Shown here: in pieces, positions 9,903-58,469 of the stretch
How positions within the stretch are numbered: the first letter of the stretch is position 1
Layout: the number at the start of each line of letters is the position of its first letter
Sequence record: NC_105825.1
Source: Escherichia phage ECOP18
Direction: 5' to 3' (one strand)
DNA length: 64,000 bases
Made by a program: the position numbers and the translations under genes
The notes under the pieces: model-generated
What the model was told of the DNA's origin: nothing
What the model saw: only the letters and a program-made list of their open reading frames with translations
Database searches by the model: none

Positions 9903-9931
9903 ATTATACAGAATTTTAAGGCTTAAAGCAA
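9903..9931 (-). promoter_or_regulatory. early sigma70-type promoter (TTGCTT-17-TATAAT)
   Basis: Minus-strand -35 TTGCTT and -10 TATAAT, 17-bp spacer, AT-rich upstream, conserved leader. Confidence 0.6.
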
Positions 9932-9948
9932 CTGAATTTTTTAATTAC

Positions 9949-10380
9949 TTACCAATCGTTAACAACGCCGGAGAACTCAGAAGCAAAAACTTTTTCAAAT
10001 TTCTCTGCAATTTCAGGATGATCTTTGCAGATCAGCTCAATACAGGCTTCTGGAGTCATTCCTTCATCTTCAGGATCACCGTAATACTTGTCCCAAAGAT
10101 CATCAGGGATGATGTGCTCTGCCAAATCTTGGAAAGAGATTAGCTGATAACGTTCTGCTTCCTCAGGGAGGAGGATTTCACAAAGATCTTTATCTATGTC
10201 ACTACGGTAATCAGCAATTAGCAGGGCATTGCAAGCATGACACTCCCAAACCATCAAGCGCTCAGAAATAGGATTAGACTTATCCTGAACGTAGGACTGA
10301 AACAGGGTTCGGAAAGTAGCTTTAACTTGTTCAAACTTATCTGCTGCTGCAAAAACTAGAGCTTTATCAACTTTGTTCAT
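9949..10380 (-). CDS. hypothetical protein
   Basis: ORF track 143 aa; RBS in the conserved leader. Confidence 0.55.
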   Translation of the reverse strand: MNKVDKALVFAAADKFEQVKATFRTLFQSYVQDKSNPISERLMVWECHACNALLIADYRSDIDKDLCEILLPEEAERYQLISFQDLAEHIIPDDLWDKYYGDPEDEGMTPEACIELICKDHPEIAEKFEKVFASEFSGVVNDW

Positions 10381-10410
10381 TTTTATTCCTTCTCATCAAT
10401 TTATAAAGTA

Positions 10411-10439
10411 ATTATACAGAAACTTAGGCATTTTAGCAA
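10411..10439 (-). promoter_or_regulatory. early sigma70-type promoter (TTGCTA-17-TATAAT)
   Basis: Same architecture as 9903-9931. Confidence 0.6.
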
Positions 10440-10539
10440 ATAAAACTTTTAATTAAAATGCCTAGTCCTGTGCCAATAGCAATACAAATGATTATAAGTA
10501 TTGCTACTGTTTGTATTACTCGTTTAATAATACCCATGA

Positions 10540-11061
10540 TTAGACATTTAACATCCAACTAGTTTTATCATGAGAAGTATATGTACCACTCATTATGTCT
10601 TCCAGCCGTACTGGTGATTTTGCATACTCAACGCAAACGTTAATATAACGAGGGTCTCCCATTAACTCAAAGTGAGTATGCCCGTGTAAGTTCTTCTTGC
10701 CCCTTAACTCTTCTGGATGTACTGGAGCATGGGAAAGCCAAAAGTTTTTATACTTAACTAGGGATTGTACATTATCTACTACTCCTACTAAGTCTTTGAA
10801 AGATAATCCTTCTCGCTCTAAGTCGTGGTTCCCCAAAACTAATGTAGTTCTAACATTGCTAAAGAGTTTTTCGAACTTCTCCAAACCATTTCTAGATACA
10901 AATGCATCTCCTAAAATATAAAATACTGTACGCTTATCTTTCATGGATGTAATAGTATCCATAATAAATTCATCATGCTCTTCCATAGTAGAGAAGATTG
11001 GTCTGAATTTAGTAATATTTGCATGTCCTAAGTGGAGATCACTCCAAAAGCAAACTTTCAT
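10540..11061 (-). CDS. calcineurin-like metallophosphoesterase
   Basis: 173 aa; motifs SDLHLGH, GD, GNHD, GHTH. Confidence 0.6.
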   Translation of the reverse strand: MKVCFWSDLHLGHANITKFRPIFSTMEEHDEFIMDTITSMKDKRTVFYILGDAFVSRNGLEKFEKLFSNVRTTLVLGNHDLEREGLSFKDLVGVVDNVQSLVKYKNFWLSHAPVHPEELRGKKNLHGHTHFELMGDPRYINVCVEYAKSPVRLEDIMSGTYTSHDKTSWMLNV

Positions 11062-11936
11062 TAAAGAATCCTCTGTATGCCACAGCTATCTTCTCGAAGC
11101 GTGGTAAATGTTGTGATTTTCCCCGTTTCATCATTAACTTGCGCAACTGTCAACTGCCCGTTGAAAACACCGCCAGTATCAAGATAAACACGATTCTGGT
11201 ATAAAATAGGGTAAGGTACTCCAGTATGCCCGTGAAACACAAAGTCTACCCCACTAACTGGAGGTACTTCTATCCTGTATTTTTCTTTAAATCCTGCATA
11301 ACGCTGGAAATACGAGTGTTCCTCACCCTTTTTGGACAAATGGAAGCCTATTTCTTGGATTACATCTCGATCCCATAAGTATGGTTCAACATGGTATCCA
11401 GGATGGTCGTGTGGGTCTTCCTTAGCTGCTTCTACTTGTGCAATAAGATTATCCCATACTGGGGTTTCTACTTCATTACCACATTCTTTGTACGTAAAAG
11501 GTACACCACCATGAACAACACCAAACTTCTTACCACGATGTCTAACAGTTAGGAATACTGGCATTTTTTCAGCCATATCTTCGGCAATATTTTTAATGGT
11601 ATCCTCGTCTAGCTCATTCATAGCCCACATACCGCCATTATACATCCAGTTAGCCCAATCTCCTACAATCATAAATTGGTCATGATTACCACGAACGCTA
11701 CAGAAACGTGGATTATATAGGAATTTGGCTAGAACTTGTAGGTTCTGCGTGCCCCGATCAATTAAATCCCCCACGCATACAACGCAATCTTTCTTGCCGT
11801 TATAGCCAGCTAACTGTAGTGCATCTTCTAGTAAATCGTTGCATCCATGAATATCACCAACAAAGAATAAGTTAACATCATCAGGTACTACTAGTGTTTT
11901 ATGCACATTAAATTCTTTTTTCATAATTATTCCCAA
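11061..11936 (-). CDS. Ser/Thr protein phosphatase (PPP family)
   Basis: 291 aa; GDIHG, GDLIDRG, GNHD motifs. Confidence 0.7.
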   Translation of the reverse strand: MGIIMKKEFNVHKTLVVPDDVNLFFVGDIHGCNDLLEDALQLAGYNGKKDCVVCVGDLIDRGTQNLQVLAKFLYNPRFCSVRGNHDQFMIVGDWANWMYNGGMWAMNELDEDTIKNIAEDMAEKMPVFLTVRHRGKKFGVVHGGVPFTYKECGNEVETPVWDNLIAQVEAAKEDPHDHPGYHVEPYLWDRDVIQEIGFHLSKKGEEHSYFQRYAGFKEKYRIEVPPVSGVDFVFHGHTGVPYPILYQNRVYLDTGGVFNGQLTVAQVNDETGKITTFTTLREDSCGIQRIL

Positions 11937-12172
11937 ATAACATTTAAAATAGTTGTACCATAATTATTTGATAGTTTTAGAGTATAACCATCTTTATAGA
12001 GGGCTTTTATAGCTTCATAACTAATTTCATCACGATTAAATTGTATAAAAGAACCCCCAGCCTCTACAGAAGCTAGAATCCGTCTTTTAACGTATCTATA
12101 CGGCTTCTTTCTGCTCTTGAGAAGAGCAGCTCTATTAACTCTAGCTAAACGTTTTGCTTGCTCTGCTAACAT
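11927..12172 (-). CDS. hypothetical protein
   Basis: ORF track 81 aa; RBS aggagg in the leader. Confidence 0.5.
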   Translation of the reverse strand: MLAEQAKRLARVNRAALLKSRKKPYRYVKRRILASVEAGGSFIQFNRDEISYEAIKALYKDGYTLKLSNNYGTTILNVIWE

Positions 12173-12199
12173 TTAATCCTCCTATCAATCTATATAAAT

Positions 12200-12228
12200 A
12201 TTATACCAAAATTTTTAGCAAAAAGCAA
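12200..12228 (-). promoter_or_regulatory. early sigma70-type promoter (TTGCTT-17-TATAAT)
   Basis: Same architecture. Confidence 0.55.
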
Positions 12229-12269
12229 GTAAAATAAAAGCCTGATCAGCTAAGATCATGCTTTGTTTA

Positions 12270-12984: not shown

Positions 12985-13059
12985 AATATATACCTCTCTT
13001 AACTAATTTATGTATATATTATATAATAACTAGGGCTAAAAGTCAACTACTTTTTTATC

Positions 13060-13476
13060 TTAATTTACTGCATGTATAAATCTTTTCCTAACTAGATACA
13101 TAGTTATTGGGTAAATTGAGTACATAAGTATCGGGGAGAAAAGGGTGAAATACGCTGTAACTCCCCCAGCTAACATCAAAGGTATTAATGCTAGAGTAAG
13201 GGCCATAAGAATCATACCGAATGAAACAGCCAAAGCTATGGATATAGGATTCTCTAGTTCCATCCATAACCAACAATATTTCGTATCTCTATGGCAATTG
13301 CATTTACAAACGCCGAATGAACCCATAATTATATACTCTAGTCCGTGAATAACCTTTATTAATAAGCTATTTCGGGTAGTTAATGCAATGATAGTAAAGA
13401 CTATCATTAAAACGAATACTACTAGACTTATTTTCCAGATACCTAGCAGCATCATAGTGAATAGTTCTGCAAACAT
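13060..13476 (-). CDS. multi-pass membrane protein
   Basis: 138 aa, at least 3 hydrophobic segments. Confidence 0.5.
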   Translation of the reverse strand: MFAELFTMMLLGIWKISLVVFVLMIVFTIIALTTRNSLLIKVIHGLEYIIMGSFGVCKCNCHRDTKYCWLWMELENPISIALAVSFGMILMALTLALIPLMLAGGVTAYFTLFSPILMYSIYPITMYLVRKRFIHAVN

Positions 13477-14620: not shown

Positions 14621-14737
14621 TTGTAACCTCCTCTAACCAGTACCATTATACTAATTTTGGAGGAAAATTACAATGTGTTTTTAAAGATTTTCTTTGGAGC
14701 ACAAAATTTTGTCGTTGTCAAGAAGAATTTTAGATAA

Positions 14738-16141: not shown

Positions 16142-16494
16142 TAATCTTTCCTATTGTTAATTGGTGGATAGTAAACTAAGCAACGTTTTTCTTGTAAATC
16201 TTGGCGATAGAAGCAAACCATACCAGTCAGTCGTGAGATATATGAATATTCTGCCTCGCGGCATTTTGCCAACATATTCCAATCTTTATATGGTACAACA
16301 ACTACTACGCCATCTTCGCCATTTGTAGCTAATTTCTTTTCGAATTTGAAATCAAAGCTACAAGGCTGAAGTCCTTTAGGCCAGTCTACATGAGCTTGCT
16401 TTAACTCATGAGATGACTCTGGTTTTATTTCTTCTGCACAGCCTGTGATTGTGATTGCGGCTGCGAGCAGTATTCCAAGTTTCCAGTTAAACAC
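16141..16494 (-). CDS. lipoprotein (possible o-spanin)
   Basis: 117 aa; lipobox LAAAITITGC; 70-nt out-of-frame overlap with the upstream TM/coiled-coil gene. Confidence 0.4.
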   Translation of the reverse strand: MFNWKLGILLAAAITITGCAEEIKPESSHELKQAHVDWPKGLQPCSFDFKFEKKLATNGEDGVVVVVPYKDWNMLAKCREAEYSYISRLTGMVCFYRQDLQEKRCLVYYPPINNRKD

Positions 16495-17529: not shown

Positions 17530-17560
17530 ATTTAATCCTCTTGCCTCAATCTATAAACAT

Positions 17561-17589
17561 ATTATACAAAAGTTTGGGCATCTAAGCAA
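17561..17589 (-). promoter_or_regulatory. early sigma70-type promoter (TTGCTT-17-TATAAT)
   Basis: Same architecture. Confidence 0.6.
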
Positions 17590-17611
17590 CTAAAATTTTA
17601 TTATAAAAATA

Positions 17612-17645
17612 GCCCAGTCGCAAAAGTGCAGGCTGGGCTTTGTCA
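17612..17645 (-). terminator. rho-independent terminator (hairpin could act on both strands)
   Basis: agcccag...ctgggct hairpin with T/U runs on both sides. Confidence 0.5.
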
Positions 17646-18423: not shown

Positions 18424-18716
18424 TTCAGATCCTTTTCATTAATTAGAATATTAGTAAACAGTGGAGTAACCCCTAGACTCATAGTAGGTCCAAACGTATT
18501 CATGGCTACCCACAATTGCATAGTGATCATCCCATCTTTAATCTCCGGATCTTTATATTCTTCGATACGTTTTTTGGCAAAGGCAACTACATCTGGAATA
18601 CTACCGTTCTTTACAACATGATCATGCCAAAACTGAGCGTTTTCACTTCGTAGGAATGTTAAAACATCCTTAGTTGCTGGAATCTGCACTGTGCTATTGA
18701 TGTTTAGTCTTTTCAC
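18420..18716 (-). CDS. hypothetical protein
   Basis: ORF track 98 aa. Confidence 0.5.
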   Translation of the reverse strand: MKRLNINSTVQIPATKDVLTFLRSENAQFWHDHVVKNGSIPDVVAFAKKRIEEYKDPEIKDGMITMQLWVAMNTFGPTMSLGVTPLFTNILINEKDLK

Positions 18717-19387: not shown

Positions 19388-19655
19388 CCTCCCCACTACA
19401 ATCACGACATACATCATAATCGTTGAAAGAACGTTCGTGAGCTTCACACCACCAAGAACAAGAATCGCAGAGAAACATTTCGGTTTTCTCCAGTGCTTGA
19501 CCTAAAAGATCATCAGCTTCCTCAGCAGTAATCTTCAATCCGCACACATCTGCCACACGTTCTTTAATTAAACGACCTGCTTCATGGTAGGACATACAGG
19601 TTCCCGCAACATCATGTTCAAGAACATGAATGGCACAGTCTAGGCGATTTTTCAT
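19374..19655 (-). CDS. Cys-rich acidic protein
   Basis: 93 aa; several CxxC-like pairs; RBS in the leader. Confidence 0.5.
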   Translation of the reverse strand: MKNRLDCAIHVLEHDVAGTCMSYHEAGRLIKERVADVCGLKITAEEADDLLGQALEKTEMFLCDSCSWWCEAHERSFNDYDVCRDCSGEDEDE

Positions 19656-19695
19656 TTCAAACCTCTCTCATCAATTTATAAACATATTATAGCAA

Positions 19696-19724
19696 GAAAA
19701 GAGAGGTTTAGCAAATGAATTATT
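19696..19724 (-). promoter_or_regulatory. early sigma70-type promoter (TTGCTA-17-TATAAT)
   Basis: Same architecture. Confidence 0.6.
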
Positions 19725-19731
19725 TCAGAAT

Positions 19732-21766: not shown

Positions 21767-22060
21767 TTATAGCAACTCGTCTAAGCAAGAGGTATATTTA
21801 AGTTTACCATCTTTATCTACTTTGATTTCGACTTCCGCTCGTGGTACTTGATGAACTACACCATGAATCATCTTATAGCGAATGCCTTTAGCTGGTTCAT
21901 GCTCTTTTGGAAATACTTGCTTAACCGTTACTACCTTAAAACCCTCACGCGGTGTTAACACTACTACTTGATCACCTTCTTTGATCTTCCAAGAGCCAGG
22001 AAATTCATAGGTATAGCGTTGACCACCAGTTTGGAACACAACAGAAAGATAACGTTTCAT
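21767..22060 (-). CDS. hypothetical protein
   Basis: ORF track 97 aa; RBS in the leader. Confidence 0.5.
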   Translation of the reverse strand: MKRYLSVVFQTGGQRYTYEFPGSWKIKEGDQVVVLTPREGFKVVTVKQVFPKEHEPAKGIRYKMIHGVVHQVPRAEVEIKVDKDGKLKYTSCLDELL

Positions 22061-22090
22061 TTGGCTTCCCTCTCATTAATTTATATAAAT

Positions 22091-22119
22091 ATTATAACAA
22101 TAAATAAGAGAGAAAGCAA
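22091..22119 (-). promoter_or_regulatory. early sigma70-type promoter (TTGCTT-17-TATAAT)
   Basis: Same architecture. Confidence 0.6.
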
Positions 22120-22127
22120 ATGAATTT

Positions 22128-22295
22128 TTAATAAAGTTTAGTCACTTCATAAACTATACTACGAGATTCTTTATTACGTTCTATTAAATTAGAATATGCT
22201 TTTTCAGCTTCATTTTTAGTATTAAAGTCTATAACGTGGGAGGTATTCGCTCTATTTGATTGACTATACCAGATAACTACTAATAATTTAAACAT
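22128..22295 (-). CDS. hypothetical protein
   Basis: ORF track frame; start moved so it does not overlap the tRNA at 22310. Confidence 0.35.
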   Translation of the reverse strand: MFKLLVVIWYSQSNRANTSHVIDFNTKNEAEKAYSNLIERNKESRSIVYEVTKLY

Positions 22296-24217: not shown

Positions 24218-24455
24218 AAATTATTTAGTTTACTAAGGCTATTAGCTCGGCGTAACTACAGCACCTTCGCTTCGAGCGGAAGGAACCGCGTCATCTCGCA
24301 AACCCGATACACTATTCAGTTGCCACTGAATCTAGTGGACTAATCTAGAACTTCTCCCGAATCGTAGGGATCGTGCTTTTTGGCAGCCAGTCCTAGGTCG
24401 AACTAATACCTTAGTGAACTATGATGAGGATTTCTCCTCATCAATTTATATAAAT

Positions 24456-24484
24456 ATTATAACAAGAAATTAAGCATTAAGCAA
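24456..24484 (-). promoter_or_regulatory. early sigma70-type promoter (TTGCTT-17-TATAAT) driving a non-coding leader and tRNAs
   Basis: Same architecture; no CDS for about 240 nt downstream on the minus strand. Confidence 0.55.
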
Positions 24485-24502
24485 CTGCGTTTTTCTTGAA
24501 AT

Positions 24503-24581
24503 TGGTAGATCGCCTGGGACTCGAACCCAGAACCTTCCGATTAAAAGTCGGATGCTACTAAACCTATTGAGCTAGCGATCT
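24503..24581 (-). tRNA. tRNA-Lys (TTT)
   Basis: Acceptor AGATCGC/GCGATCT, anticodon stem TCCGA/TCGGA, loop CTTTTAA, T-arm CTGGG-TTCGAGT-CCCAG, CCA. Confidence 0.6.
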
Positions 24582-25137: not shown

Positions 25138-25169
25138 TTTGCTTTCCTTCTCAACACTTTATAAGGTAT

Positions 25170-25198
25170 ATTATACAGAGAATTAAGCATAATAGCAA
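25170..25198 (-). promoter_or_regulatory. early sigma70-type promoter (TTGCTA-17-TATAAT)
   Basis: Same architecture. Confidence 0.6.
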
Positions 25199-25337
25199 AT
25201 GAATTTTTAATAAATTTACTTATTGTGTAGGCCACCTGGAGGCTACCAACCCCACGGCTGACAAAGAAGTTTGCGAGACCTCTCTTAAGTGCCAGAATAG
25301 ACCCGCCGATCTATCGGAACCTACATAATAAGTAAAC

Positions 25338-26649: not shown

Positions 26650-26697
26650 ATTTATCTTGTTCTGTCATGTTGCTTCTCCAGTTCAATTTATGTAATT

Positions 26698-26726
26698 ATT
26701 ATACAGAACTTTTGGAAACTAAGCAA
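26698..26726 (-). promoter_or_regulatory. early sigma70-type promoter (TTGCTT-17-TATAAT)
   Basis: Same architecture; precedes tRNA-Cys on the minus strand. Confidence 0.55.
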
Positions 26727-27006
26727 CTACATTTTTTAAAAATTTGATGCCTTTCTTTTTCTTCTTATATTTCCACGTTAAGGGATTCTGTCGATTATGA
26801 ACGCTTGAGATCTTTGTCTCGTCAAAGTTCTTCAATATCATGTAATCACAGGATAATTGTTCTAATGGAATGTGATCACCGTCAAAAGCGTATACATAAG
26901 GCTGTTGACTAGCACGATAATGATAGACTTTGTTAATTCTACGTTTCAGCAACTTATCCGCGCAGTAAATAAAGAAGTTTTCAGGATGCATCAGCAGCTC
27001 CCTCAA
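26719..27006 (-). CDS. hypothetical protein
   Basis: ORF track 95 aa; its 3' end overlaps the promoter footprint, so boundaries are uncertain. Confidence 0.4.
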   Translation of the reverse strand: MRELLMHPENFFIYCADKLLKRRINKVYHYRASQQPYVYAFDGDHIPLEQLSCDYMILKNFDETKISSVHNRQNPLTWKYKKKKKGIKFLKNVVA

Positions 27007-27348: not shown

Positions 27349-27476
27349 ATATTTAAAAGTATTCAAATACTAGTTTAAACACTTTTAGATATGTTTCCAA
27401 ATTAGATAACTATTATATCAAGTTTTATGGCACTGAGCAAGTCAAATTTTAAAGAACTTGCTCAGTGCTGTATTAG

Positions 27477-27752: not shown

Positions 27753-27782
27753 TCGTTAACTCCTTCATCAATTTATATAACT

Positions 27783-27812
27783 ATTATACCAGAAATTTAA
27801 AGCAAAAGGCAA
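27783..27812 (-). promoter_or_regulatory. early sigma70-type promoter (TTGCCT-18-TATAAT)
   Basis: Variant -35 and 18-bp spacer. Confidence 0.5.
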
Positions 27813-27842
27813 GTACATTTTTAAAAATTCTGTTTGGAGGAG

Positions 27843-28805: not shown

Positions 28806-28884
28806 TTGGTGGCTCCCCGAGGATTCGAACCTACGTACCTTCCGGTTATGAGCCGGGTGCTCATACCATATGAGCTTGAGAACC
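28806..28884 (-). tRNA. tRNA with CAT anticodon (third CAT tRNA)
   Basis: Acceptor GGTTCTC/GGGAGCC with G-U pairs, D-stem GCTC/GAGC, anticodon loop CTCATAA, T-loop TTCGAAT, CCA; T-stem weak. Confidence 0.45.
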
Positions 28885-28979: not shown

Positions 28980-28994
28980 GAATTTATAAGATAT

Positions 28995-29023
28995 ATTATA
29001 TTAGAAATTTAGCTTCATAGCAA
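28995..29023 (-). promoter_or_regulatory. early sigma70-type promoter (TTGCTA-17-TATAAT) for a tRNA transcript
   Basis: Same architecture. Confidence 0.55.
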
Positions 29024-29522: not shown

Positions 29523-29549
29523 TGGTTCCTCTCTCAAATTTATAGATAT

Positions 29550-39237: not shown

Positions 39238-39263
39238 ATGTGTACCTCCAATTTATAAAATAT

Positions 39264-39293
39264 ATTATATTTAAATTTCACTAAATAAGCAAA
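39264..39293 (-). promoter_or_regulatory. early sigma70-type promoter (TTGCTT-18-TATAAT)
   Basis: Same family. Confidence 0.5.
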
Positions 39294-39331
39294 TGAAATT
39301 TAAATATAATAGCCCCGAAGGGCTATTTAAA

Positions 39332-41846: not shown

Positions 41847-41877
41847 TGATTTTCCTCTTTCTCACTATTTCAGGAAT

Positions 41878-41906
41878 ATTATAGCAAATCTGGTAGCGAT
41901 TAGCAA
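41878..41906 (-). promoter_or_regulatory. early sigma70-type promoter (TTGCTA-17-TATAAT) upstream of nrdB
   Basis: Same architecture. Confidence 0.55.
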
Positions 41907-41952
41907 GTAAAATTTCAAAGAAAAAGGAGACCCGAAGATCTCCTTGTTTTTA

Positions 41953-44283
41953 TTAAATAGTACAACCACCGGATGCACAACCTGCTGCTTCTTCTCCAGC
42001 ACCTCCACCATTTGCGGTATTGAAGTTAGCATAATACCAAGTTTTCCACCCATACTTAACAGCAGTCATGAAATCACGAACTACTACTGGGCCAGGAATA
42101 ATTTCATTCTCAAACTTGGTGTAGTCATAGTACATATTCGTACTGATAGACTGACTGAAGAATTTCTGCATAGTTGCTACCCATTTGATCCACTCGATAC
42201 GATCTACATCATAAGCCAGTTTATAGCTCATTAACGTTTCCCAATCGGTTGCACCCGGGGCAATTGCAATTACTTTATTCACTGCACTACCTTTGATAGA
42301 TACAATCTTACGAGGCGGTTCAATAGAGTTAGTAACACCTAACAGAACAGAAGAACTTTCTCCCGGCATCTGAGCAGTCAGAACAGAGTTACGCATACCG
42401 TATTTCAGAATATCTGCACGTAGAGACTCCCAATCCATTTCTAGACCTACGGATACCAGTTCATCAACAGTTTTCTTATACGTGTCGATTACTAGAATTC
42501 CTTTAGATGGTTTAGTACGATCAAACCACTCACATGCACCCTGTTCTTTAGCCAGGCGTACAGAGGCTTTATGCAGGAAGTAAGACAGTTTTTCAGCCTC
42601 ACGGTGAATCCAGTTACGGGCTTCAATACCTTCGTAAGCCAGACCTTCTGCTGCCATTGCACCCGCTGCATTCATCAGGCCAATACCAACATTACGACGT
42701 TTCTTAGCCGTATATTCCATAGTTGGGAACGGATAATCCTGAATTTCAATAATTGTATCAACGAATTTCAGAAGGATGTAGCAAGTTTTTTCCCACTCAG
42801 CCAGAGATTCCATGCGTCCAAGTACAACACCACCTAAGTTACACAGGGATACTTCACCAATATCCTCCGGCTTCATTTGATCAAGCTGCTCTTTTGTCTT
42901 ATACAGCTCTGTAATATGATGGAACGGGCGTGTAGGCTGAGTAATTTCAACACAAAGGTTTGTCATGCGGATCGGATCAAGGAAGTTACCGTGACGATTG
43001 GATTCCCCAATGTGGTGAGCATACATACGTCCTGTTTCCATTCGGATACGTAGCCAAGTATCTAGGATTTCTTTTGCAGAGACCTTAGGAGCTGCTGGAA
43101 CTGTCTTTCCTTCGTGGTCGATCTTTGTAAGAGATGCCACACGTTTCTCCGCTGCCACATAGATTTCTTCAAATTTAGCCTCGTCATCACTATAAAACGC
43201 CTCATGAACTTCTGGAGCATAGAAGTATGACATTAGCGTAATATCTTCGTTTTTCAGATAACGTTTTAACAAAAGATTGTTGAAGCTCAGAGAATAATCC
43301 ATCTTATCGATTTTATTCTCATCTGTAGCACGTTGTTGCTTAACCTGCATCAATTGAATGATTTCAGGATCGAAATATGGATAAGACACTGTAGCAGAAC
43401 CACCACGAGTTTGCTGAGTATTGGCCTTTACTGAGCGGTCAATGTGTCGATAATATGGCAGTTTTCCGGAATGCGGGAATGCCCCATTTCGCACCGGATC
43501 AGCAATTGATCGGCTTTCAAGATGATACCCGATTCCCGCTCTGGCTGCGACCATTTTGAAGACGATGTGCTCGGCGGTGTCGATTGAATCCAACGTGTCA
43601 GTGGAATCCACGAGACAGCAACTAGCAAATCCACGGTCACTAGAGCGCAAGCCAACCAATGGCGGCGTAGGAATGTTGATTTTGTGTAGCGACATTGCGT
43701 TGTAGAGGTCGATTGCATCTAGAATTGTCCAATTAGGTTGAGATAACATCGCCATTGCCATACCCATATAGGCAAATTGCGGAGTTTCGTAAATTTCGCC
43801 AGTTGCGATATTACGACGGGAATACTTATCAAAGAATTGTTTCAATCCTCCGCTAGTGAAAAGACGGTCACGATCATGGTCAATAACCTGATTCAAAGCC
43901 TCAAACTGCTCATCGGTAATCCATGCACTCATGTCTTCCCATGCACCTACACTAACCATATGATCGTGGAAGAAGCGTAGAGAAGGTGGTTCGAAGGAAT
44001 CATAAAGGCGTTTACGCATCTGCGCAAGACGTAATTCCTTTGCTGGCACGTCGTATGCTGGGTTATCTTTAATAAGACTTTCAGCAGCCTTAATTAAAGC
44101 ATCCATCAGAGTGTCGGAATCCACAACCCCTTTAGGCAGAGTTTTTTGGGCAGCCATAGTAATGGCAGACCAACTTACATCAACTGTTTTACAACCATAC
44201 TCTGCCCAACCATTGAGTTTTTCAGGAGCAAAGTCTTCTACAGTACCGTCACGTTTAATTACTTTTTCAATGCGATGGCTCAT
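41953..44283 (-). CDS. nrdA: ribonucleotide reductase class Ia alpha subunit
   Basis: ORF track frame, start moved to MSHRIEKVIKRDG (ATP-cone-like N-terminus) with RBS; C-terminal Cys-containing tail; about 776 aa. Confidence 0.8.
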   Translation of the reverse strand: MSHRIEKVIKRDGTVEDFAPEKLNGWAEYGCKTVDVSWSAITMAAQKTLPKGVVDSDTLMDALIKAAESLIKDNPAYDVPAKELRLAQMRKRLYDSFEPPSLRFFHDHMVSVGAWEDMSAWITDEQFEALNQVIDHDRDRLFTSGGLKQFFDKYSRRNIATGEIYETPQFAYMGMAMAMLSQPNWTILDAIDLYNAMSLHKINIPTPPLVGLRSSDRGFASCCLVDSTDTLDSIDTAEHIVFKMVAARAGIGYHLESRSIADPVRNGAFPHSGKLPYYRHIDRSVKANTQQTRGGSATVSYPYFDPEIIQLMQVKQQRATDENKIDKMDYSLSFNNLLLKRYLKNEDITLMSYFYAPEVHEAFYSDDEAKFEEIYVAAEKRVASLTKIDHEGKTVPAAPKVSAKEILDTWLRIRMETGRMYAHHIGESNRHGNFLDPIRMTNLCVEITQPTRPFHHITELYKTKEQLDQMKPEDIGEVSLCNLGGVVLGRMESLAEWEKTCYILLKFVDTIIEIQDYPFPTMEYTAKKRRNVGIGLMNAAGAMAAEGLAYEGIEARNWIHREAEKLSYFLHKASVRLAKEQGACEWFDRTKPSKGILVIDTYKKTVDELVSVGLEMDWESLRADILKYGMRNSVLTAQMPGESSSVLLGVTNSIEPPRKIVSIKGSAVNKVIAIAPGATDWETLMSYKLAYDVDRIEWIKWVATMQKFFSQSISTNMYYDYTKFENEIIPGPVVVRDFMTAVKYGWKTWYYANFNTANGGGAGEEAAGCASGGCTI

Positions 44284-44626: not shown

Positions 44627-45388
44627 TTACACCTTCCCCATGTCTTTAAAAATATCGTAGAATGCTTTAGACTCAGCAGAACGAACGTTATCAATCAATT
44701 CGATCATTGAGAATGGGGCATTTTCGTATTTCTCATAGACTTCCATAAGTAGTGCTAGACCTGAGTCACATTTAATGTCTTTCTGAGCTATATCTCCGCA
44801 GATAATTAAACGGCAGTCTTGTCCTACACGAGTTAGGAGACAAATCATTGCCTCAACGGAAATATTCTGAGCTTCATCGACAATTACATAGGAGTTGTTG
44901 AAAGTTCTGCCACGAGCATGTTCTACAGCCAAAAATTTAATTTTCTGACGTTCGACATATCCCTTATAGGCATGATCACCGATGGCCCATTTCATACCAT
45001 CAGCTATTGGCTCTAACCAAGGCTCTAGCTTTTCCGCTAGATCACCAGGAAGCATACCAAGAGACTTACCTAGAGGTTCATTAGGACGTACGAGGATCAC
45101 TTGCTCAATATCTGAGTGAATGTCTACGAGTTCCTGAGCTGCAAGAACAGACGGGATAAAGGTTTTACCAGTACCTGGCTCACCGATACCCACAGTCACT
45201 GTGTTGTTCTTGATCATATTGATATATGATTTTTGCTCGCGGTTTTTACCTACTAGGGATTTAGCAACTGGGTTAGCGTAATCATTAGAAAAATCAGCCT
45301 GAATTACGTTATTCTCATATTTGTTGCCACGCTTTCTTGAACCATTGCGGTTCTCTCTTTTTTGACGTGCTTTTCCCATAAATAACAC
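44627..45388 (-). CDS. phoH: PhoH-like ATPase
   Basis: 253 aa; Walker A GEPGTGKT and PhoH-like Walker B region. Confidence 0.75.
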   Translation of the reverse strand: MLFMGKARQKRENRNGSRKRGNKYENNVIQADFSNDYANPVAKSLVGKNREQKSYINMIKNNTVTVGIGEPGTGKTFIPSVLAAQELVDIHSDIEQVILVRPNEPLGKSLGMLPGDLAEKLEPWLEPIADGMKWAIGDHAYKGYVERQKIKFLAVEHARGRTFNNSYVIVDEAQNISVEAMICLLTRVGQDCRLIICGDIAQKDIKCDSGLALLMEVYEKYENAPFSMIELIDNVRSAESKAFYDIFKDMGKV

Positions 45389-45452
45389 TCCTATAGTGTA
45401 CTTCGCTAACAGAGGATCAACAAAAAGATCTTGTTTATCAACTTACAAATAT

Positions 45453-45481
45453 ATTATACCAATATATACAGTAAAAAGCAA
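45453..45481 (-). promoter_or_regulatory. early sigma70-type promoter (TTGCTT-17-TATAAT) for phoH
   Basis: Same architecture. Confidence 0.6.
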
Positions 45482-45673
45482 CTACAATTTTAAATAAGCC
45501 TATGATATTGCATTTAAATAAAAAATTTGCTTGCTTTTAACGTGAGATGTGTGATACTAGATAATCATTTTATATCGCGTGCACGAGTGCGTGATTATAC
45601 AATTTTTAATAGAGATTGGCAAATAAAATTTTTTGACTCAGATCATGTTACAGAACTTTATAGTAAAATATTG

Positions 45674-45702
45674 TTGACATCCGCCCTCGAATGAGTTATA
45701 AT
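45674..45702 (+). promoter_or_regulatory. sigma70 promoter TTGACA-17-TATAAT for nrdD
   Basis: Perfect consensus hexamers, 17-bp spacer, about 30 nt upstream of the nrdD ATG. Confidence 0.65.
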
Positions 45703-45731
45703 AGTAGTCTTAGTTAGAGAAGGAGAGTATA

Positions 45732-47606
45732 ATGAATCGCAATGAAGAACTAAAGTATAAAGAAATGCAGGCGTTAATTAGAAACTGCAAAGAGATTATC
45801 GAAGGGTCAGCAGATGAAGAGCTGCTGTTTAATAATGCCAATAAACCCTCAGAACGTTTCCCTACACAAAGGGATATGCTTGCAGGTGAATTGAGTAAGT
45901 ATCTGATTCTAGAAGAAATGCCCATTCAGATTCGAAATGCTCATATGATTGGAGATATTCATTTCCATGATGCTGACTATGCTGCATTAGGTATGACTAA
46001 CTGTTGTCTGGTAGCTCTGGAAGATATGTTGAAGAATGGTATGAAGGTTGGTAATGCTGAAATTAGCACTCCAAACTCTATCACTACTGCGGCAGCTATT
46101 ACAGCTCAGATTATCACTCAGGTTAGCTCCCATCAGTATGGTGGTACTTCTGTAGATCGCCTTGATGAAGTATTAGCCCCTTATGTTCGTAAATCCTATG
46201 ACAAAAATCATGCGTTTGCAAAACGTTGGACTAAGGATGAAGCCAAAGCATCCGTAATGGCTACGGAGATGACTGAAAAAGAAGTCTATGATGCTTGTCA
46301 GGGTCTAGAGTATGAAATCAATACGATGTTCAACTCTAATGGTCAGAGTCCATTTATTACCTTTGGTTTTGGTCTAGGGACTTCTTGGGAAGCACGTCTA
46401 GTACAGAAAGCAATACTGAAAGTACGTATGGATGGCTTAGGCATCAATAAACGTACAGCTATCTTTCCGAAACTGGTGTTTGTTCTGCGTGATGGCGTAA
46501 ATATGAAGCCAGGAGATGTTAATTATGACGTCAAGAAGTTAGCTATGAAATGTACTGCTGAACGTATGTATCCAGATTATATCAGCTATGATAAGGTTGT
46601 AGAAGTTACTGGGGACTATAAAGTTTCTATGGGCTGCCGTTCATTCCTAGCTGCTACAGAAGATGGTGAAACTGCCGGTCGTAATAACTTAGGTGTTGTT
46701 TCTGTAAACTTGCCTAGAATTGCTATCGAAGCTGAAGGAAATATTGACCTATTCTTTGATTTGCTTGAGCTACGTGTAGATACAGCATTAAAAGCGTTGG
46801 AGTGGAGAGTTGATCGCTTAAAATACATTCAAGCTAAAGCTGCACCCATCCTCTATATGTCAGGAGCCTTTGGGTTACGTTTGGGGCCTGATGAATATGT
46901 ATTCGATCATTTCTATAACCGTGCTTCTGTATCTCTAGGGTATATTGGTTGCCATGAAATGCTACAGTTCATGTTTGGCAAAGATGTAGACACAATGTCC
47001 GAGACCTGCATCAAGTTTGTTCAGCGTGTATTGCAGTACATGCGGGATAGAGTCGATCAGAAGAAGGAAGAAACTAAGTTAGGTTATAGCCTGTATGCTA
47101 CACCATCAGAATCCCTATGTGACCGTTTTTGTCGTCTAGACCGTGAATACTTCCCGGAGCATGAAGATATTCTGTCCAAAGGATACTACACTAACTCTCA
47201 CCACCTTGATGTAGAACGTAAAGTTGCTCCCAATGTGAAATTTGATTATGAATCTAACTTTACGCCGATTGCTTCTGGTGGATGTATTTCCTATGTAGAA
47301 CTACCGGATATGAAACGATTCCCAGATGCACTGGAATGGGTTATTAATTATGCTGCTAGTAAGGTTCATTACTTCGGTATTAATACTCCAGTGGATTCTT
47401 GTGGTAAATGTGGATTCTTAGGTGAAACAATAGCATCCGAAGATGGGTTTAAGTGCCCTATCTGTGGTAATCATGACCCTGAAACTCTTGAAGTAACTCG
47501 TCGAGTTTGTGGGTATCTTGGAAATCCGGGTGCTCGTCCATTTAACCCCGGCAAACAGCACGAGGTTATGGGCAGAGTGAAACATCAGGATATTCGAGCT
47601 AAATAA
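45732..47606 (+). CDS. nrdD: anaerobic ribonucleotide reductase (class III)
   Basis: 624 aa; C-terminal Zn-ribbon cysteines (CGKCGF...CPICG) and glycyl-radical motif RRVCGYLG. Confidence 0.8.
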   Translation: MNRNEELKYKEMQALIRNCKEIIEGSADEELLFNNANKPSERFPTQRDMLAGELSKYLILEEMPIQIRNAHMIGDIHFHDADYAALGMTNCCLVALEDMLKNGMKVGNAEISTPNSITTAAAITAQIITQVSSHQYGGTSVDRLDEVLAPYVRKSYDKNHAFAKRWTKDEAKASVMATEMTEKEVYDACQGLEYEINTMFNSNGQSPFITFGFGLGTSWEARLVQKAILKVRMDGLGINKRTAIFPKLVFVLRDGVNMKPGDVNYDVKKLAMKCTAERMYPDYISYDKVVEVTGDYKVSMGCRSFLAATEDGETAGRNNLGVVSVNLPRIAIEAEGNIDLFFDLLELRVDTALKALEWRVDRLKYIQAKAAPILYMSGAFGLRLGPDEYVFDHFYNRASVSLGYIGCHEMLQFMFGKDVDTMSETCIKFVQRVLQYMRDRVDQKKEETKLGYSLYATPSESLCDRFCRLDREYFPEHEDILSKGYYTNSHHLDVERKVAPNVKFDYESNFTPIASGGCISYVELPDMKRFPDALEWVINYAASKVHYFGINTPVDSCGKCGFLGETIASEDGFKCPICGNHDPETLEVTRRVCGYLGNPGARPFNPGKQHEVMGRVKHQDIRAK

Positions 47607-47614
47607 GCTAATCA

Positions 47615-47647
47615 GCCGGGTTGCTAGTCGACCTGGCTTTTATTTTA
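47615..47647 (+). terminator. putative terminator after nrdD
   Basis: agccgggt...acctggct imperfect hairpin followed by ttttatttt. Confidence 0.4.
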
Positions 47648-47648
47648 T

Positions 47649-47677
47649 TTGCTTTCAGCCAAAAATTTATATATAAT
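47649..47677 (+). promoter_or_regulatory. early-family promoter (TTGCTT-17-TATAAT), plus strand
   Basis: Same hexamers and conserved leader ATAGATTTATAAATTTGAGAGGAG. Confidence 0.6.
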
Positions 47678-47705
47678 AGATTTATAAATTTGAGAGGAGA
47701 AAGCT

Positions 47706-47987
47706 ATGAGCGAGTTGCTTCCTAAAGTAGATGTCTCCCATCTTGGAGAGCCTAGTGAAGAACGTAAGGCTCTAGATTGGTTGGGTGGATTTGATTATCG
47801 TCGTGTTGTTGCAACATGGAATGATAAGAAAGTTAAGAAGTTTCGGGTACATTATGTAGGTAAAGACAAGTGGCTCTGGATTGATTATGAAGAATCGAAG
47901 GGATCTACTAAGGCTGTGAAAATTTATCGTATGTATGGGTATTATTATGCCCACTGTGATAAGAATGAATTTACAGTACAGAACTAA
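47706..47987 (+). CDS. hypothetical protein
   Basis: ORF track 93 aa. Confidence 0.55.
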   Translation: MSELLPKVDVSHLGEPSEERKALDWLGGFDYRRVVATWNDKKVKKFRVHYVGKDKWLWIDYEESKGSTKAVKIYRMYGYYYAHCDKNEFTVQN

Positions 47988-54621: not shown

Positions 54622-54835
54622 ATGGGAAACAAGGAAGTTTCCAGTAAAAGAACGTAAAGTTCCTATTTATGATACTTCGGAAAAGCTATGTAGGGTGGTA
54701 CCGCACAGATTAGCTGGCATCCCTAACATATCCGAATGGTTACTTAAACAACGGAGGACTAACGTATCCCTTCGCATAGGGTTTGAGTTAGATAAAGTAT
54801 ACGCTGAACTTTCTTCTTTGCTCAAAGAATCATAA
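54622..54835 (+). CDS. hypothetical protein
   Basis: ORF track frame, start moved to MGNKEV. Confidence 0.35.
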
Positions 54836-54844
54836 AAAATTTAT

Positions 54845-54873
54845 TTGCTTTCAGGAAAATTTTTCTGTATAAT
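54845..54873 (+). promoter_or_regulatory. early-family promoter (TTGCTT-17-TATAAT), plus strand
   Basis: Consensus hexamers and conserved leader. Confidence 0.6.
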
Positions 54874-54904
54874 AGATTCATAAATTTGAGAGAGGAGTTT
54901 AAAT

Positions 54905-55609
54905 ATGGCTGGTTCTCGCAGGAAGAAACATATCCATGAAATCCCGGATGAAGTCTTTAAAAAAGTTATAGAGCATCTGGAGAACGGTGGTACTAAGAAA
55001 GCAGCATGTGAAATGCTCGGCGTATCCTCCAATCCGACTATGGAAAGGATGATAGAAGAGTGGCAAGATCGCCAAATTCAAGTTGCCGAGATGAAGAAAA
55101 AGAAACGTGGTACACTCATTGAAGGTATTGAGTTGGCCAACGTTATTGAACAGTATCTATCTGGTGATTCCTTTGAGGAGATTGCCGATCGTAATTATCG
55201 TTCTGTAGCAATGGTTAAATCTGTTCTGGAACGCTATGGTGCTCTGCTTCGTTTGAATGATATTGTAGACCCATTGAATCCGCCAATTATTCCTGATGAT
55301 GCTGTAGCAGAAGAATTTGAGATAGGCGAGCTTGTTTGGGTTCCTGGATACCAGTGTATTGGTGAAATCAAAAAAGCAATGGATAACCCCGTTGGTTGCT
55401 ACCGTGTATGGCTTCTATCGGAAGGCAAACAACAGAATGTTCATTATATGAATTATGAATTAGCTTCTGTAAAGCATTTGGAAAAGCTGGGGGTAGATGT
55501 AAAATCTCTGGGATATAAATGGACTCGGGAAGAAGTCATTACATTGATTAACGAAGCTGTTAAGGCTGCCCTGAAACTTGATAAAGAAAAAGGAAAACGC
55601 CGTGAGTAA
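54905..55609 (+). CDS. putative HTH DNA-binding protein
   Basis: 234 aa; GGTKKAACEMLGVSSNPTMERM resembles a helix-turn-helix. Confidence 0.45.
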   Translation: MAGSRRKKHIHEIPDEVFKKVIEHLENGGTKKAACEMLGVSSNPTMERMIEEWQDRQIQVAEMKKKKRGTLIEGIELANVIEQYLSGDSFEEIADRNYRSVAMVKSVLERYGALLRLNDIVDPLNPPIIPDDAVAEEFEIGELVWVPGYQCIGEIKKAMDNPVGCYRVWLLSEGKQQNVHYMNYELASVKHLEKLGVDVKSLGYKWTREEVITLINEAVKAALKLDKEKGKRRE

Positions 55610-55838
55610 ACTAACTGATTTACTTAAAGATGGAGATGTAAAATATCTCCAGCGGGATAGCTGGGAAAATAGTAAAGAATATACTGTACTATTGAAATTT
55701 GACGTAGACAGCAATACTGTACGCCAATACGTGTGGATGCCTTCAGACACTACGCTGCTGCCTAGTGATGAAGAGGTTGAATTAACACTAGACGAAGCTC
55801 TAGCGGATGATTGGGAGATTGTTGAGCTAGATGTGTAG
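55578..55838 (+). CDS. hypothetical acidic protein
   Basis: ORF track 86 aa. Confidence 0.45.
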   Translation: MIKKKENAVSKLTDLLKDGDVKYLQRDSWENSKEYTVLLKFDVDSNTVRQYVWMPSDTTLLPSDEEVELTLDEALADDWEIVELDV

Positions 55839-55858
55839 CAATTACCGAAAAATTTCAG

Positions 55859-55887
55859 TTGCTTAATCCTACAATTCTTGATATAAT
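55859..55887 (+). promoter_or_regulatory. early-family promoter (TTGCTT-17-TATAAT), plus strand
   Basis: Consensus hexamers. Confidence 0.6.
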
Positions 55888-55944
55888 ATTCTCATAGTTT
55901 GAAAGAACTATTCTGTTTAATTCTTAATTAAGGAAATATAAAAT

Positions 55945-56355
55945 ATGACTACTCCAACTCAGTGGACTGATGAACTGTTTGAAAAAATGTCTTCCGAATA
56001 CGTTGCTCGTATGGAGCAATTCCCAGAGGATGAACGTCCGGGTGTTAGCATGGAAATTGTTAGCGAAATCGCCCAGGAAAATGGTGTAACTCCGAACGGT
56101 TTTCGTATGAAGCTGACTAAAGCAGGTTTGTATATCAAGAAAGCTGCTGGCTCTGCTTCTAAATCTAGCGCATCTACTGGAGAAAAAGCTTCCGGTGGTT
56201 CTCGTACCTCCAAAGCCCAAGCTCATGCTGATCTTCGTTCAGCATTCTCTGATGCTGGCTTAGCACCAGATTTTCTGGATGATGCAATTATCGACAAACT
56301 GACCGGTAAAGCGGCTGCTCATATGGCAGAAGCAATCCGAGCTATCACTAAGTAA
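55945..56355 (+). CDS. hypothetical protein
   Basis: ORF track 136 aa; RBS aaggaaa. Confidence 0.55.
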   Translation: MTTPTQWTDELFEKMSSEYVARMEQFPEDERPGVSMEIVSEIAQENGVTPNGFRMKLTKAGLYIKKAAGSASKSSASTGEKASGGSRTSKAQAHADLRSAFSDAGLAPDFLDDAIIDKLTGKAAAHMAEAIRAITK

Positions 56356-56731: not shown

Positions 56732-56738
56732 TATGTAA

Positions 56739-57044
56739 ATGAGCGAACAGGTAAATCAAAACTATGATGGACACGTTGATGACCAGTCCATCATACTTTG
56801 GGAGAAGGAGGGAGAACAAGTAAGATTAACAGTATCTGAATTTCGTGGGAATCTATACATGGGTATTCGTTACTGGCTTCTTGATATTAATGATGAATGG
56901 TTTCCAACGAAATCTGGCTTCTCTTTTCCTTACACCCTAGAAACAACATCACAGCTTTTCTATGCGTTTACACAGATTCTTAGCGAATCTGAGGTTTTAC
57001 ATGAAGTACAGAAACGAGCTGAAGAACTCAAAGCCAAGAACTAG
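56739..57044 (+). CDS. hypothetical protein
   Basis: ORF track 101 aa. Confidence 0.5.
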   Translation: MSEQVNQNYDGHVDDQSIILWEKEGEQVRLTVSEFRGNLYMGIRYWLLDINDEWFPTKSGFSFPYTLETTSQLFYAFTQILSESEVLHEVQKRAEELKAKN

Positions 57045-57074
57045 GCATTCTTGGCTTTTTCTTTATAAATGTAT

Positions 57075-57103
57075 TTGCTTTCAACTCAGTTTTGTTATAT
57101 AAT
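57075..57103 (+). promoter_or_regulatory. early-family promoter (TTGCTT-17-TATAAT), plus strand
   Basis: Consensus hexamers and leader ATTTATATAAATTAATGAGAGGA. Confidence 0.6.
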
Positions 57104-57117
57104 ATTTATATAAATTA

Positions 57118-57333
57118 ATGAGAGGATTAATCATGGCAATGACAGTAACACTTCCCAAGATTCAAGCAAAACTTAATCTACTTTCCACAGCACGCATTAA
57201 TTATCAGGATAACATAGGCACAGTAAATCAAAAGGTGTACAAAGATGCGTTTCTGAAAGAATCTGCTGATTTGATGGATATGGTTACACAATATAATAAA
57301 GAACTCAAGATGGAAATCGCCGATGATGAATAA
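57118..57333 (+). CDS. hypothetical protein
   Basis: ORF track 71 aa. Confidence 0.5.
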   Translation: MRGLIMAMTVTLPKIQAKLNLLSTARINYQDNIGTVNQKVYKDAFLKESADLMDMVTQYNKELKMEIADDE

Positions 57334-58297
57334 TGTAAAAGACTTTATTAAGCGTTGTCAAGAAGCATATTATCAAGGCATGTCTTTAATCTCTGACGAA
57401 GAATATGATCGTCTGATTAAAAGATTTCCACTAGAAGAAGAGATCGGGCCTAAGGGTGATATTCCACACCTGTATCGTATGTATTCTTTACAGAAAGTTT
57501 ATTATAATCGTGGAGATAAACCTCCGTTTAACCCATTAGGTCAGGTGGAAACTGATAAGTTAGATGGTTGTGCGATTTCTCTGCTATATATTAATGGCGA
57601 TTTTGTTCAAGCACTAACTCGTGGTAACGGTATTTTAGGAAATGATGTCACAAGCAACGTAAGATTGCTGAACATCCCCAAAAAGATTTCCCAAAAAGTA
57701 CCTACTCAAATCACTGGTGAAGTTCTAATTACAAAAGAAGTAGAAAATAAACGTAACTTTGCCTCTGGTGCTATTAACCTCAAAGATAGCGATGATTTCG
57801 TACAACGTATCGGGGAAGGTGGTTTAATCTTCGTTGCATATGGTATCCAGTGTTCTGCTGAATCTGTAGGTATTACAGAAGCATATTTAAAAGATATGCT
57901 TTGGCTAGAGAATGAGAACTTCTTAACAGTTGTTAATGTGCGTTCCTTCTTTAAATGGATTCCGACGGACGGTAAAGTTGTCCGTATTAATGATAACAAC
58001 AAATTCTTCCGAGAAGGCTGGACTAATAAATTCCCTCGTGGAGCATTCGCTATTAAAGAGGATGAAGAAGGCGAGATTACAACCCTTACTAAAGTTGAAT
58101 GGCAGGTAGGGGCTTCTGGTAAAGTAACTCCAGTTGGTTATTTCGAACCGGTAATTATTGATGATGCTACAATTGTTAAAGCGACTCTTAATAACGTTGA
58201 TTATATTAACTCTCTTGATTTAGAGATCGGTTGCCAGATTCGAGTGATTCGTGCTGGTGGTGTAATCCCGTGCATAGTAGAGCGAGTATACGATTAA
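57323..58297 (+). CDS. NAD-dependent DNA ligase, N-terminal adenylation part
   Basis: 324 aa; KLDG lysine-adenylation motif in LigA-like context (ETDKLDGCAISLLY). Confidence 0.65.
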   Translation: MMNNVKDFIKRCQEAYYQGMSLISDEEYDRLIKRFPLEEEIGPKGDIPHLYRMYSLQKVYYNRGDKPPFNPLGQVETDKLDGCAISLLYINGDFVQALTRGNGILGNDVTSNVRLLNIPKKISQKVPTQITGEVLITKEVENKRNFASGAINLKDSDDFVQRIGEGGLIFVAYGIQCSAESVGITEAYLKDMLWLENENFLTVVNVRSFFKWIPTDGKVVRINDNNKFFREGWTNKFPRGAFAIKEDEEGEITTLTKVEWQVGASGKVTPVGYFEPVIIDDATIVKATLNNVDYINSLDLEIGCQIRVIRAGGVIPCIVERVYD

Positions 58298-58440
58298 TAC
58301 ATAACCCTTTGCTACCCATCTACCATATCGGAATTATAAAGTGGTTATTGACATTTTCGCCGCTTAGGTATATACTATTATCATTCAGTTGAGGGATAGA
58401 AAGTTATGGCGAGGGTAAGCAAAGTTAGTTAAAATTGTAG

Positions 58441-58469
58441 TTGCTAAATGCTTAAATACTTGCTATAAT
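58441..58469 (+). promoter_or_regulatory. early-family promoter (TTGCTA-17-TATAAT) between the two ligase ORFs
   Basis: Consensus hexamers. Confidence 0.6.

Follow-up and report, generated by a model that had tools for sequence, protein, structure and literature searches.

What does the conserved leader that follows a recurrent promoter in Escherichia phage ECOP18 do: does it act on the RNA, as an element of post-transcriptional control, or does it belong to the promoter? We addressed this question in a stretch of 64,000 nucleotides of the phage (sequence record NC_105825.1; hereafter the window, numbered from its first letter), where TTGCTW-type promoters recur between 9903 and 58469. With a probability of roughly 0.9, these promoters form the early class of a T5-like phage, built as composite initiation signals, and the leader is an initial transcribed sequence joined to a Shine-Dalgarno sequence.

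Early promoters shared with phage T5

The motif TTGCTW-N{17,18}-TATAAT has 25 exact matches in the window (20 on the minus and five on the plus strand), spanning positions 9903-58469, against 0.14 +/- 0.35 expected from dinucleotide shuffles, in which no more than one match was ever obtained. A scan of the window with a position weight matrix, which the first-pass annotation had proposed, confirms the family: the matrix, covering the core from -42 to +1 (numbered from the end of the -10 hexamer), sets it fully apart from shuffled sequence, whose top score is 7.4, and adds four variants with -10 ends at 13018 (TTGACT), 27412 (TTGCTC), 27783 (TTGCCT, 18-bp spacer) and 45594 (TTGCCA). Looser relatives lie at 51332, 45702 and 4053. 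Together with four to eight single-mismatch variants beyond the exact matches, the family comes by exact, weight-matrix and loose scans to about 29-33 members on both strands, so that the earlier count of at least 28 promoters was correct. As had also been noticed, these sigma-70-type promoters stand before most early transcription units on both strands.

The hexamers are indeed near-identical, but the description does not extend to the rest of the sequence, since for paralogues the mean pairwise identity falls from 0.68 over +1 to +7 to 0.42 within the spacer, the level of the flanks being about 0.28. The spacer, given before as 17 or 18 bp, measures 17 bp in all 25 exact matches and 18 bp in none of them, the longer form being that of the variant at 27783, and an A directly follows the TATAAT in 24 of the 25. 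The AT-rich upstream sequence is real: a block AAAAWTTYAT abuts the -35 hexamer, with A in 21-24 of 25 promoters at the columns 7-10 nt upstream of it, then WTTYAT. On the other side, the downstream consensus reads A t. T t t A TAAATT g a t G A g A g g (AtaTttATAAATTgatGAgAgg). ATAAATT begins exactly 6 nt past TATAAT in 22 of 28 promoters and is present as the exact heptamer in 19; the window holds 42 such heptamers, 19 of which sit 6-7 nt past a TATAAT.

The identity of these promoters follows from comparison with T5. When 34 window promoters were aligned to T5 (AY543070) by blastn, 33 aligned at 81-100% identity over 78-151 nt, with the same genes downstream, and every one of these 33 sites coincides with a feature annotated as a promoter in AY543070; the promoter at 4053 gave no blastn alignment to T5. 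The named counterparts are P-N25, P-N26, P-H207, P-K28a, P-D/E33, P-F30, P11, P13a/b, P14a/b, P15a-c and P16-17, the others being annotated promoters without a name. Between orthologues, the -10 hexamer is unchanged in all cases and the -35 hexamer has changed once, while the substitution rate is 4-8% in the A-tract, spacer, discriminator and +1 to +7. The motif family is the long-known, annotated and published early promoter family of T5 and its relatives; it was already known, and finding it again adds nothing new. N25 serves as the standard model of promoter escape, the "T5 promoter" of expression vectors descends from it, and the family is among the strongest and best-studied sigma-70 promoters. 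The T5 early promoters are reportedly the subject of Gentz & Bujard 1985 and of Wang et al. 2005, the latter said to be the source of the AY543070 annotation.

The window as a whole has the same affiliation. By megablast it groups with T5-like phages (Demerecviridae, Tequintavirus), with 92-98% identity to Tequintavirus genomes, including 95-97% across 54-58 kb for DaisyDussoix and VEc33 and about 98% across 9-33 kb for T5_ev212 and EC148. T5 from about 7.4 kb to 72.6 kb is collinear with the window, of which the first ~3.8 kb are therefore the terminal repeat (first-step-transfer DNA) and the remainder the early region. Positions 1-3800, which align to the T5 terminal repeat, yielded no family member in the scans, nor did a generic sigma-70 scan of 1-10000, which hardly exceeded shuffled sequence (43 matches versus 32 in shuffles). 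The window has about 39% G+C and 21 tRNA genes on the minus strand, clustered at 21-33 kb, and the direction of transcription switches near 45.6 kb.

The promoters, with the end of the -10 hexamer where it is used in the text, are as follows:

9850-9945, minus, -10 end 9903: early promoter TTGCTT-17-TATAAT with leader ATAAATTAATGAGAGAGG; unnamed T5 promoter 16245-16319
10380-10453, minus, -10 end 10411: early promoter, orthologue of T5 P-F30
12172-12242, minus: early promoter directly behind a terminator hairpin; T5 promoter 18550-18624
12985-13060, minus, -10 end 13018: variant TTGACT-17-TATAAT with leader ATAAATTAG..GAGAGG
17530-17603, minus: early promoter, orthologue of T5 promoter 24443-24517
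19655-19728, minus: early promoter, orthologue of T5 promoter 26722-26796
22060-22133, minus, -10 end 22091: early promoter, orthologue of T5 P11
24405-24498, minus, -10 end 24456: early promoter with no gene after it, T5 P13b; leads into an RNA2H-like stable RNA, tRNA-Ala and tRNA-Leu
25138-25212, minus, -10 end 25170: early promoter, orthologue of T5 P13a
26650-26740, minus, -10 end 26698: early promoter, T5 P14b; a 10-codon mini-ORF (open reading frame), then tRNA-Cys 48 nt past the -10
27385-27454, minus, -10 end 27412: variant TTGCTC, T5 P14a; leads into tRNA-Tyr/Glu/Trp/Phe
27753-27826, minus, -10 end 27783: variant TTGCCT with 18-bp spacer, orthologue of T5 P15c
28980-29037, minus, -10 end 28995: early promoter, T5 P15b; leader ATAAATTC straight into tRNA-Ser(GCU)
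29520-29592, minus, -10 end 29550: early promoter, orthologue of T5 P15a
33365-33429, minus, -10 end 33387: early promoter, T5 P16-17; leads into an RNAX-like non-coding region and tRNA-Arg
34029-34102, minus, -10 end 34060: early promoter, orthologue of T5 P-D/E33
34870-34942, minus: early promoter, orthologue of T5 promoter 43067-43141
36187-36269, minus: early promoter with a longer leader; ATAAATTTGAGA kept, working Shine-Dalgarno sequence further downstream
38060-38140, minus, -10 end 38098: early promoter, T5 P-H207; identical to T5 over -50 to +30
38422-38491, minus: early promoter with divergent start region TGAAAGTGAGGAGG; exact-motif match
39238-39306, minus, promoter 39264: early promoter directly behind a terminator hairpin; exact-motif match
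41847-41920, minus, promoter 41878: early promoter behind a terminator hairpin; T5 homology ends 2-7 nt past the -10
45380-45636, minus, -10 ends 45453 and 45594: tandem promoters, the first a family member with a long leader, the second with TTGCCA
47635-47708, plus, promoter 47677: early promoter behind a terminator hairpin; T5 promoter 55708-55782
54831-54907, plus, -10 end 54873: early promoter before D2, T5 P-N25; two differences over -50 to +30
55845-55947, plus, -10 end 55887: early promoter before D3 with longer leader ATAGTTTGAAAG..., T5 P-N26
57061-57135, plus, promoter 57103: early promoter before ligA, behind a terminator hairpin; T5 counterpart found
58427-58500, plus, -10 end 58469: early promoter before ligB, T5 P-K28a; identical to T5 over 150 nt

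A leader made of two parts

The position of the start site comes from N25, whose sequence from -12 to +2 is given as TATAATAGATTCAT (Klimuk et al., PMC7472727), which places the start at the A of ATAAATT; the same authors report ATATT in the discriminator of all known T5 early promoters. We aligned the 28 clear members on the ATAAATT heptamer and grouped them by downstream content. Nineteen have a start codon 26-33 nt past the -10, corresponding to a 5' untranslated region (UTR) of 20-27 nt, and their consensus from +1 is ATAAATTgatGAgAgg. The five with tRNA or stable RNA behind them keep ATAAATT and lack the GAGAGG block; the four with long leaders likewise keep ATAAATT, their working Shine-Dalgarno sequence lying further downstream. 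Since ATAAATT is kept in all classes and GAGAGG only where a start codon stands at +20 to +27, the leader is composite: its first 7 (to 9) nucleotides travel with the promoter, and a ribosome-binding site is added only where a gene follows. The earlier description of a conserved leader carrying the Shine-Dalgarno sequence thus holds for the start region, and usually for both, but the Shine-Dalgarno part is limited to promoters with a gene after them. The promoters at 24456, 26698, 28995 and 33387 do lead into tRNA or stable RNA without a gene, as had been observed from the sequence, and correspond to T5 P13b, P14b, P15b and P16-17; behind promoter 28995, tRNA-Ser(GCU) starts as early as 15 nt past the -10, i.e., at about +9.

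The composition of the transcribed region is also shared among the classes. The purine fraction of the non-template strand over +1 to +20 is 0.71, against a sense-strand background of 0.53, and it amounts to 0.67 in the non-coding and 0.65 in the long-leader class; positions +8 to +18 are mostly about 90% purine or more. Shine-Dalgarno sequences of the GAGAGG type occur in 9 of 21 promoter-proximal genes and in one of the 73 internal genes whose Shine-Dalgarno sequence can be recognised, a bias that fits a constraint on initiation rather than ribosome binding alone.

In contrast, the proposal that the leader is a shared post-transcriptional control element finds no support. The 28 leaders have no common RNA fold (mean folding-energy z versus shuffles -0.25), a scan of the whole window against Rfam returned tRNAs only and no known leader RNA family, and a search of the window for antisense copies with up to three mismatches gave 11 matches, all of them the leaders themselves. 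That ATAAATT is kept before tRNAs argues, moreover, against a translational role for this part. The leaders that stand out in folding are those of 24456 (z -4.8) and of 27412 and 58469 (both about -2.4). In the transcript of the P13b-type promoter (24405-24455, minus), the family leader lies in a 5' hairpin, GAUGAGGAGAAAUCCUCAUC and AUAAAUUGAUGAGGAGAAAUCCUCAUCAUAG (-16 kcal/mol), the one strong structure of the set, which hides a Shine-Dalgarno-like GAGGAG and with which the orthologue of T5 stable RNA2H begins.

In the mechanism that we propose, unmodified host sigma-70 RNA polymerase would read the early promoters after entry of the second-step-transfer DNA. The A-tract block AAAAWTTYAT, at about -46 to -37, would work like an UP element, and is followed in order by the -35 TTGCTW, the 17-bp spacer, a perfect -10 TATAAT plus A and a 6-nt AT-rich discriminator, ATATTY. 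Transcription would start at the A of ATAAATT, and the initial transcribed sequence, AT-rich over +1 to +7 and almost purely purine over +8 to +18, would speed promoter escape by acting on the DNA and on RNA polymerase. Where a gene begins 20-27 nt past the start, the Shine-Dalgarno sequence set within the purine run would make a compact promoter-plus-ribosome-binding-site cassette.

Three parts of this scheme come from the literature: the start site, the dependence on sigma-70 and, for N25, how the transcribed region affects escape. In PMC12464699, which cites Kammerer et al. 1986 and earlier work of the Hsu laboratory, replacement of N25 +3 to +20 by the "antiDSR" hampers promoter escape, reduces full-length RNA to about one tenth and increases abortive synthesis. 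The initial transcribed sequence native to N25, AT- and purine-rich, is described there as giving the fastest escape and as evolved for it, pyrimidine-rich initial sequences as promoting backtracking and abortive release, and an UP element is placed near -49 (PMC12464699). Since the composition of the family matches what the N25 experiments favour, the conserved leader is best read as a part of the promoter that acts on RNA polymerase, and we infer by analogy that the other ~28 members behave like N25.

Several points weigh against this account. Experimental support is confined to N25, a few other T5 promoters and their orthologues. Fast escape alone explains neither the exact heptamer ATAAATT, where any AT- or purine-rich start might serve, nor the -35 hexamer TTGCTW in place of the consensus TTGACA, for which a class-specific regulatory reading is possible. 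In addition, an AU-rich 5' end with a strong Shine-Dalgarno sequence could aid translation besides, although this is not needed to account for the data.

Other readings of the conserved positions

A regulatory reading would make the early positions (TTGCTW, the ATATT discriminator and ATAAATT) a class label for a phage factor, such as the RNA-polymerase-binding protein gpT5.026 or the DNA-binding protein D5, that lowers early transcription at the onset of the late phase, acting at the level of the DNA or the open complex and on top of basic promoter function. We entertain this as a tentative possibility, on balance improbable. The signature is limited to the early class in T5, being absent from the late promoters P-G25, P-J5 and P-K28b and the pre-early P-H22, which have TTGACA or TTGATA hexamers, other start regions and no ATAAATT; the early lpp promoter at the right genome end of T5 carries it complete. 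The same architecture is kept in Pectobacterium phage My1 and in Vibrio phage D21, with D2 proteins of 71% and 38% identity, respectively; one D21 example reads TATAAT AGATTCATAAAGTCGAGAAAGGAAAG. Across these genomes AAA at +2 to +6 is found in 61-75% of TTGC-type promoters versus 7-23% of other TATAAT sites, the corresponding figures for family promoters being 62-75% versus 9-23%. Homologues of gpT5.026 occur in all T5-related phages; the protein lowers binding of RNA polymerase to the N25 -5/+2 segment about 8-10-fold, early transcripts are up in its mutant, and the ATATT discriminator has been proposed as the discriminating feature (PMC7472727). For the switch of T5 between temporal classes with one unmodified sigma factor, an early-specific discriminator and start motif, conserved as far as Vibrio phages, would be a reasonable handle, a point already made in the literature. 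However, gpT5.026 changes in vitro transcription at most two-fold and its mutant goes on switching classes (PMC7472727), the conserved block displays neither a binding site nor operator symmetry, and AT-rich discriminators and starts are expected anyway for fast opening and escape. It is the depth of conservation, together with the unexplained preference for TTGCTW over TTGACA, that keeps the possibility of a class label alive.

We think it unlikely that the family has a further role beyond optimal strength, be it the signature as an early-off address label, read via gpT5.026 or D5 at the open complex or at the RNA 5' end, or, separately, the promoter cores as crossover points at which early modules are shuffled between T5-like phages. 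If either the label or the crossover reading is true, a motif known for decades acquires a function not ascribed to it before.

Another suggestion, which appears quite unlikely to us, is that the family arose mainly by spread rather than by selection at each site. The promoter, often with a terminator in front, would then be a mobile or recombinogenic unit, and copying or exchange would carry it along with gene modules. Among 72 ends of alignment blocks between T5 and the window, 14 lie within 50 nt of a promoter -10 versus 3.9 expected, a figure not corrected for the concentration of breakpoints that intergenic DNA shows in general, and they often coincide exactly with the border of the conserved core. 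The promoter-near ends of homology are at 22131, 24499-24503, 25133, 26651-26655, 27384, 33369, 39256, 41871-41876, 47694, 51327 and 57124; homology is lost abruptly just past the start region at 33387, 39264, 41878, 47677 and 57103, and just before the A-tract at 22091 and 24456. Six of about 30 promoters stand directly behind a terminator hairpin with a T-run, which doubles as the upstream A/T block, at the following terminator-promoter junctions:

12229-12260
17590-17640
39293-39330
41907-41945
47600-47648
57030-57074

There is precedent in the PeSL promoter-terminator cassettes of T4-type phages (PMC2839356, PMC4122927), and by analogy the early promoters may be crossover or insertion points for gene modules. 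Yet paralogues are alike at functional positions only, spacer identity being 0.42 among them and about 0.96 among orthologues, and homing endonuclease genes may just favour landing behind promoters; in T5, the HNH endonuclease gene hegH lies right behind the counterpart of promoter 41878.

Finally, the 5' end AUAAAUUGAUGAGAGGA might act on the RNA, either as a translation enhancer (an AU-rich S1-binding tract with a strong Shine-Dalgarno sequence) or as the target of an RNase or RNA-binding protein on early messages, in the way that T4 RegB cuts GGAG in early Shine-Dalgarno sequences. This is very doubtful, and T5 is not known to have a RegB-like function. The uniformly short (20-27 nt), unstructured 5' UTRs, the restriction of the GAGAGG flavour to promoter-proximal genes and the conservation of the motif across genera are compatible with it, but ATAAATT is no less conserved before tRNA-Ser, the RNAX region and tRNA-Cys, where no gene follows and where the purine run occurs as well, and the window offers no common structure, Rfam family or antisense partner. 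For the same region of N25, by contrast, an effect at the DNA level is experimentally established (PMC12464699).

Two candidates fall away: a structured RNA leader that regulates in cis, be it a riboswitch, an attenuator or a hairpin bound by a protein, as the leaders share no structure and match no non-tRNA Rfam family, and recent duplication or gene conversion of promoter cassettes, ruled out by spacers that are 42% identical in paralogues versus about 96% in orthologues.

Neighbouring elements and comparison with known systems

Several elements next to the family differ from it or modify its cargo. Other strong-looking sigma-70 promoters on the minus strand, outside the TTGCTW family, include TTGACG-17-TATAAT at 4053-4081 and 6483-6511, the only two promoters of this kind yielded by the generic scan of 1-10000 and both flagged by a consensus scan for a TG before the -10; the promoter at 6483 heads a cluster that holds the orthologue of the polymerase-binding protein gene T5.026. 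A further promoter, TTGTAA-17-TATAAT at 14645-14673 (minus), precedes holin/lysis genes. At the strand switch, 45380-45740 forms a divergent promoter hub, with the minus-strand tandem 45594 and 45453 and a plus-strand TTGACA-17-TATAAT ending at 45702. Behind promoter 45594, a GC-rich palindromic stretch, CACGCACTCGTGCACGCG, takes the place of ATAAATT, and an analogous promoter of Vibrio phage D21, at about 27.39 kb next to phoH, has CCCGCGCATCATGCGCGCG at the same position; the two may represent an operator that has been conserved, a hairpin at the 5' end or a site related to an origin. In the tRNA cluster, T5.070, which has 42 codons in T5 behind P14b, is reduced by a deletion of about 110 nt to a 10-codon remnant (26651-26697, minus), so that the P14b-type promoter runs almost directly into tRNA-Cys. 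The Rfam tRNA model also detects two tRNA-like elements on the minus strand that were not called by ARAGORN, at 28810-28884 (40.3 bits), the position of T5 tRNA-Ile2, and at 33092-33163 (35.5 bits), inside the RNAX-like non-coding region.

Among known systems, the PeSL cassettes (PMC2839356, PMC4122927) resemble the family as an early-promoter motif that is repeated and in some copies joined to a terminator hairpin, and possibly in marking the borders of variable gene modules. However, where a PeSL would have a terminator stem-loop fused to each early promoter, a hairpin is found at only about 6 of 30 promoters in the window, the sequences are unrelated, and neither circular intermediates nor cassette mobility are known for the window family.

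The likeness is closer to the "DSR" of N25, the region from +1 to +20 (Kammerer et al. 1986; Hsu laboratory, PMC12464699): promoter 54873 has the N25 sequence, ATAAATTTGAGAGAGGAG, and the AT-rich-then-purine-rich make-up is common to the other members in the window, whereas the functional data come from N25 alone. In the T5-like phage AKFV33, 32 promoters have been described with TTGCTw, a spacer of 17-18 bp and TATAATA, and their consensus also includes an AT-rich AAAAATT around -43 and TAAATT at +1 (Niu et al. 2012, PMC3326045). That description draws no line between the start-region motif and the Shine-Dalgarno sequence, nor does it consider tRNA-driving promoters, as is done here.

The early promoters of T5 itself share with those of the window TTGCTW, the 17-bp spacer, TATAATA, the A-tract at -43 and the ATAAATT start, as well as the genes, tRNAs and stable RNAs downstream. 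Differences between the two sets are at strain level only, with 0-10 substitutions per 80 nt in most pairs, while the downstream cargo has been exchanged at 33387, 41878, 47677 and 57103.

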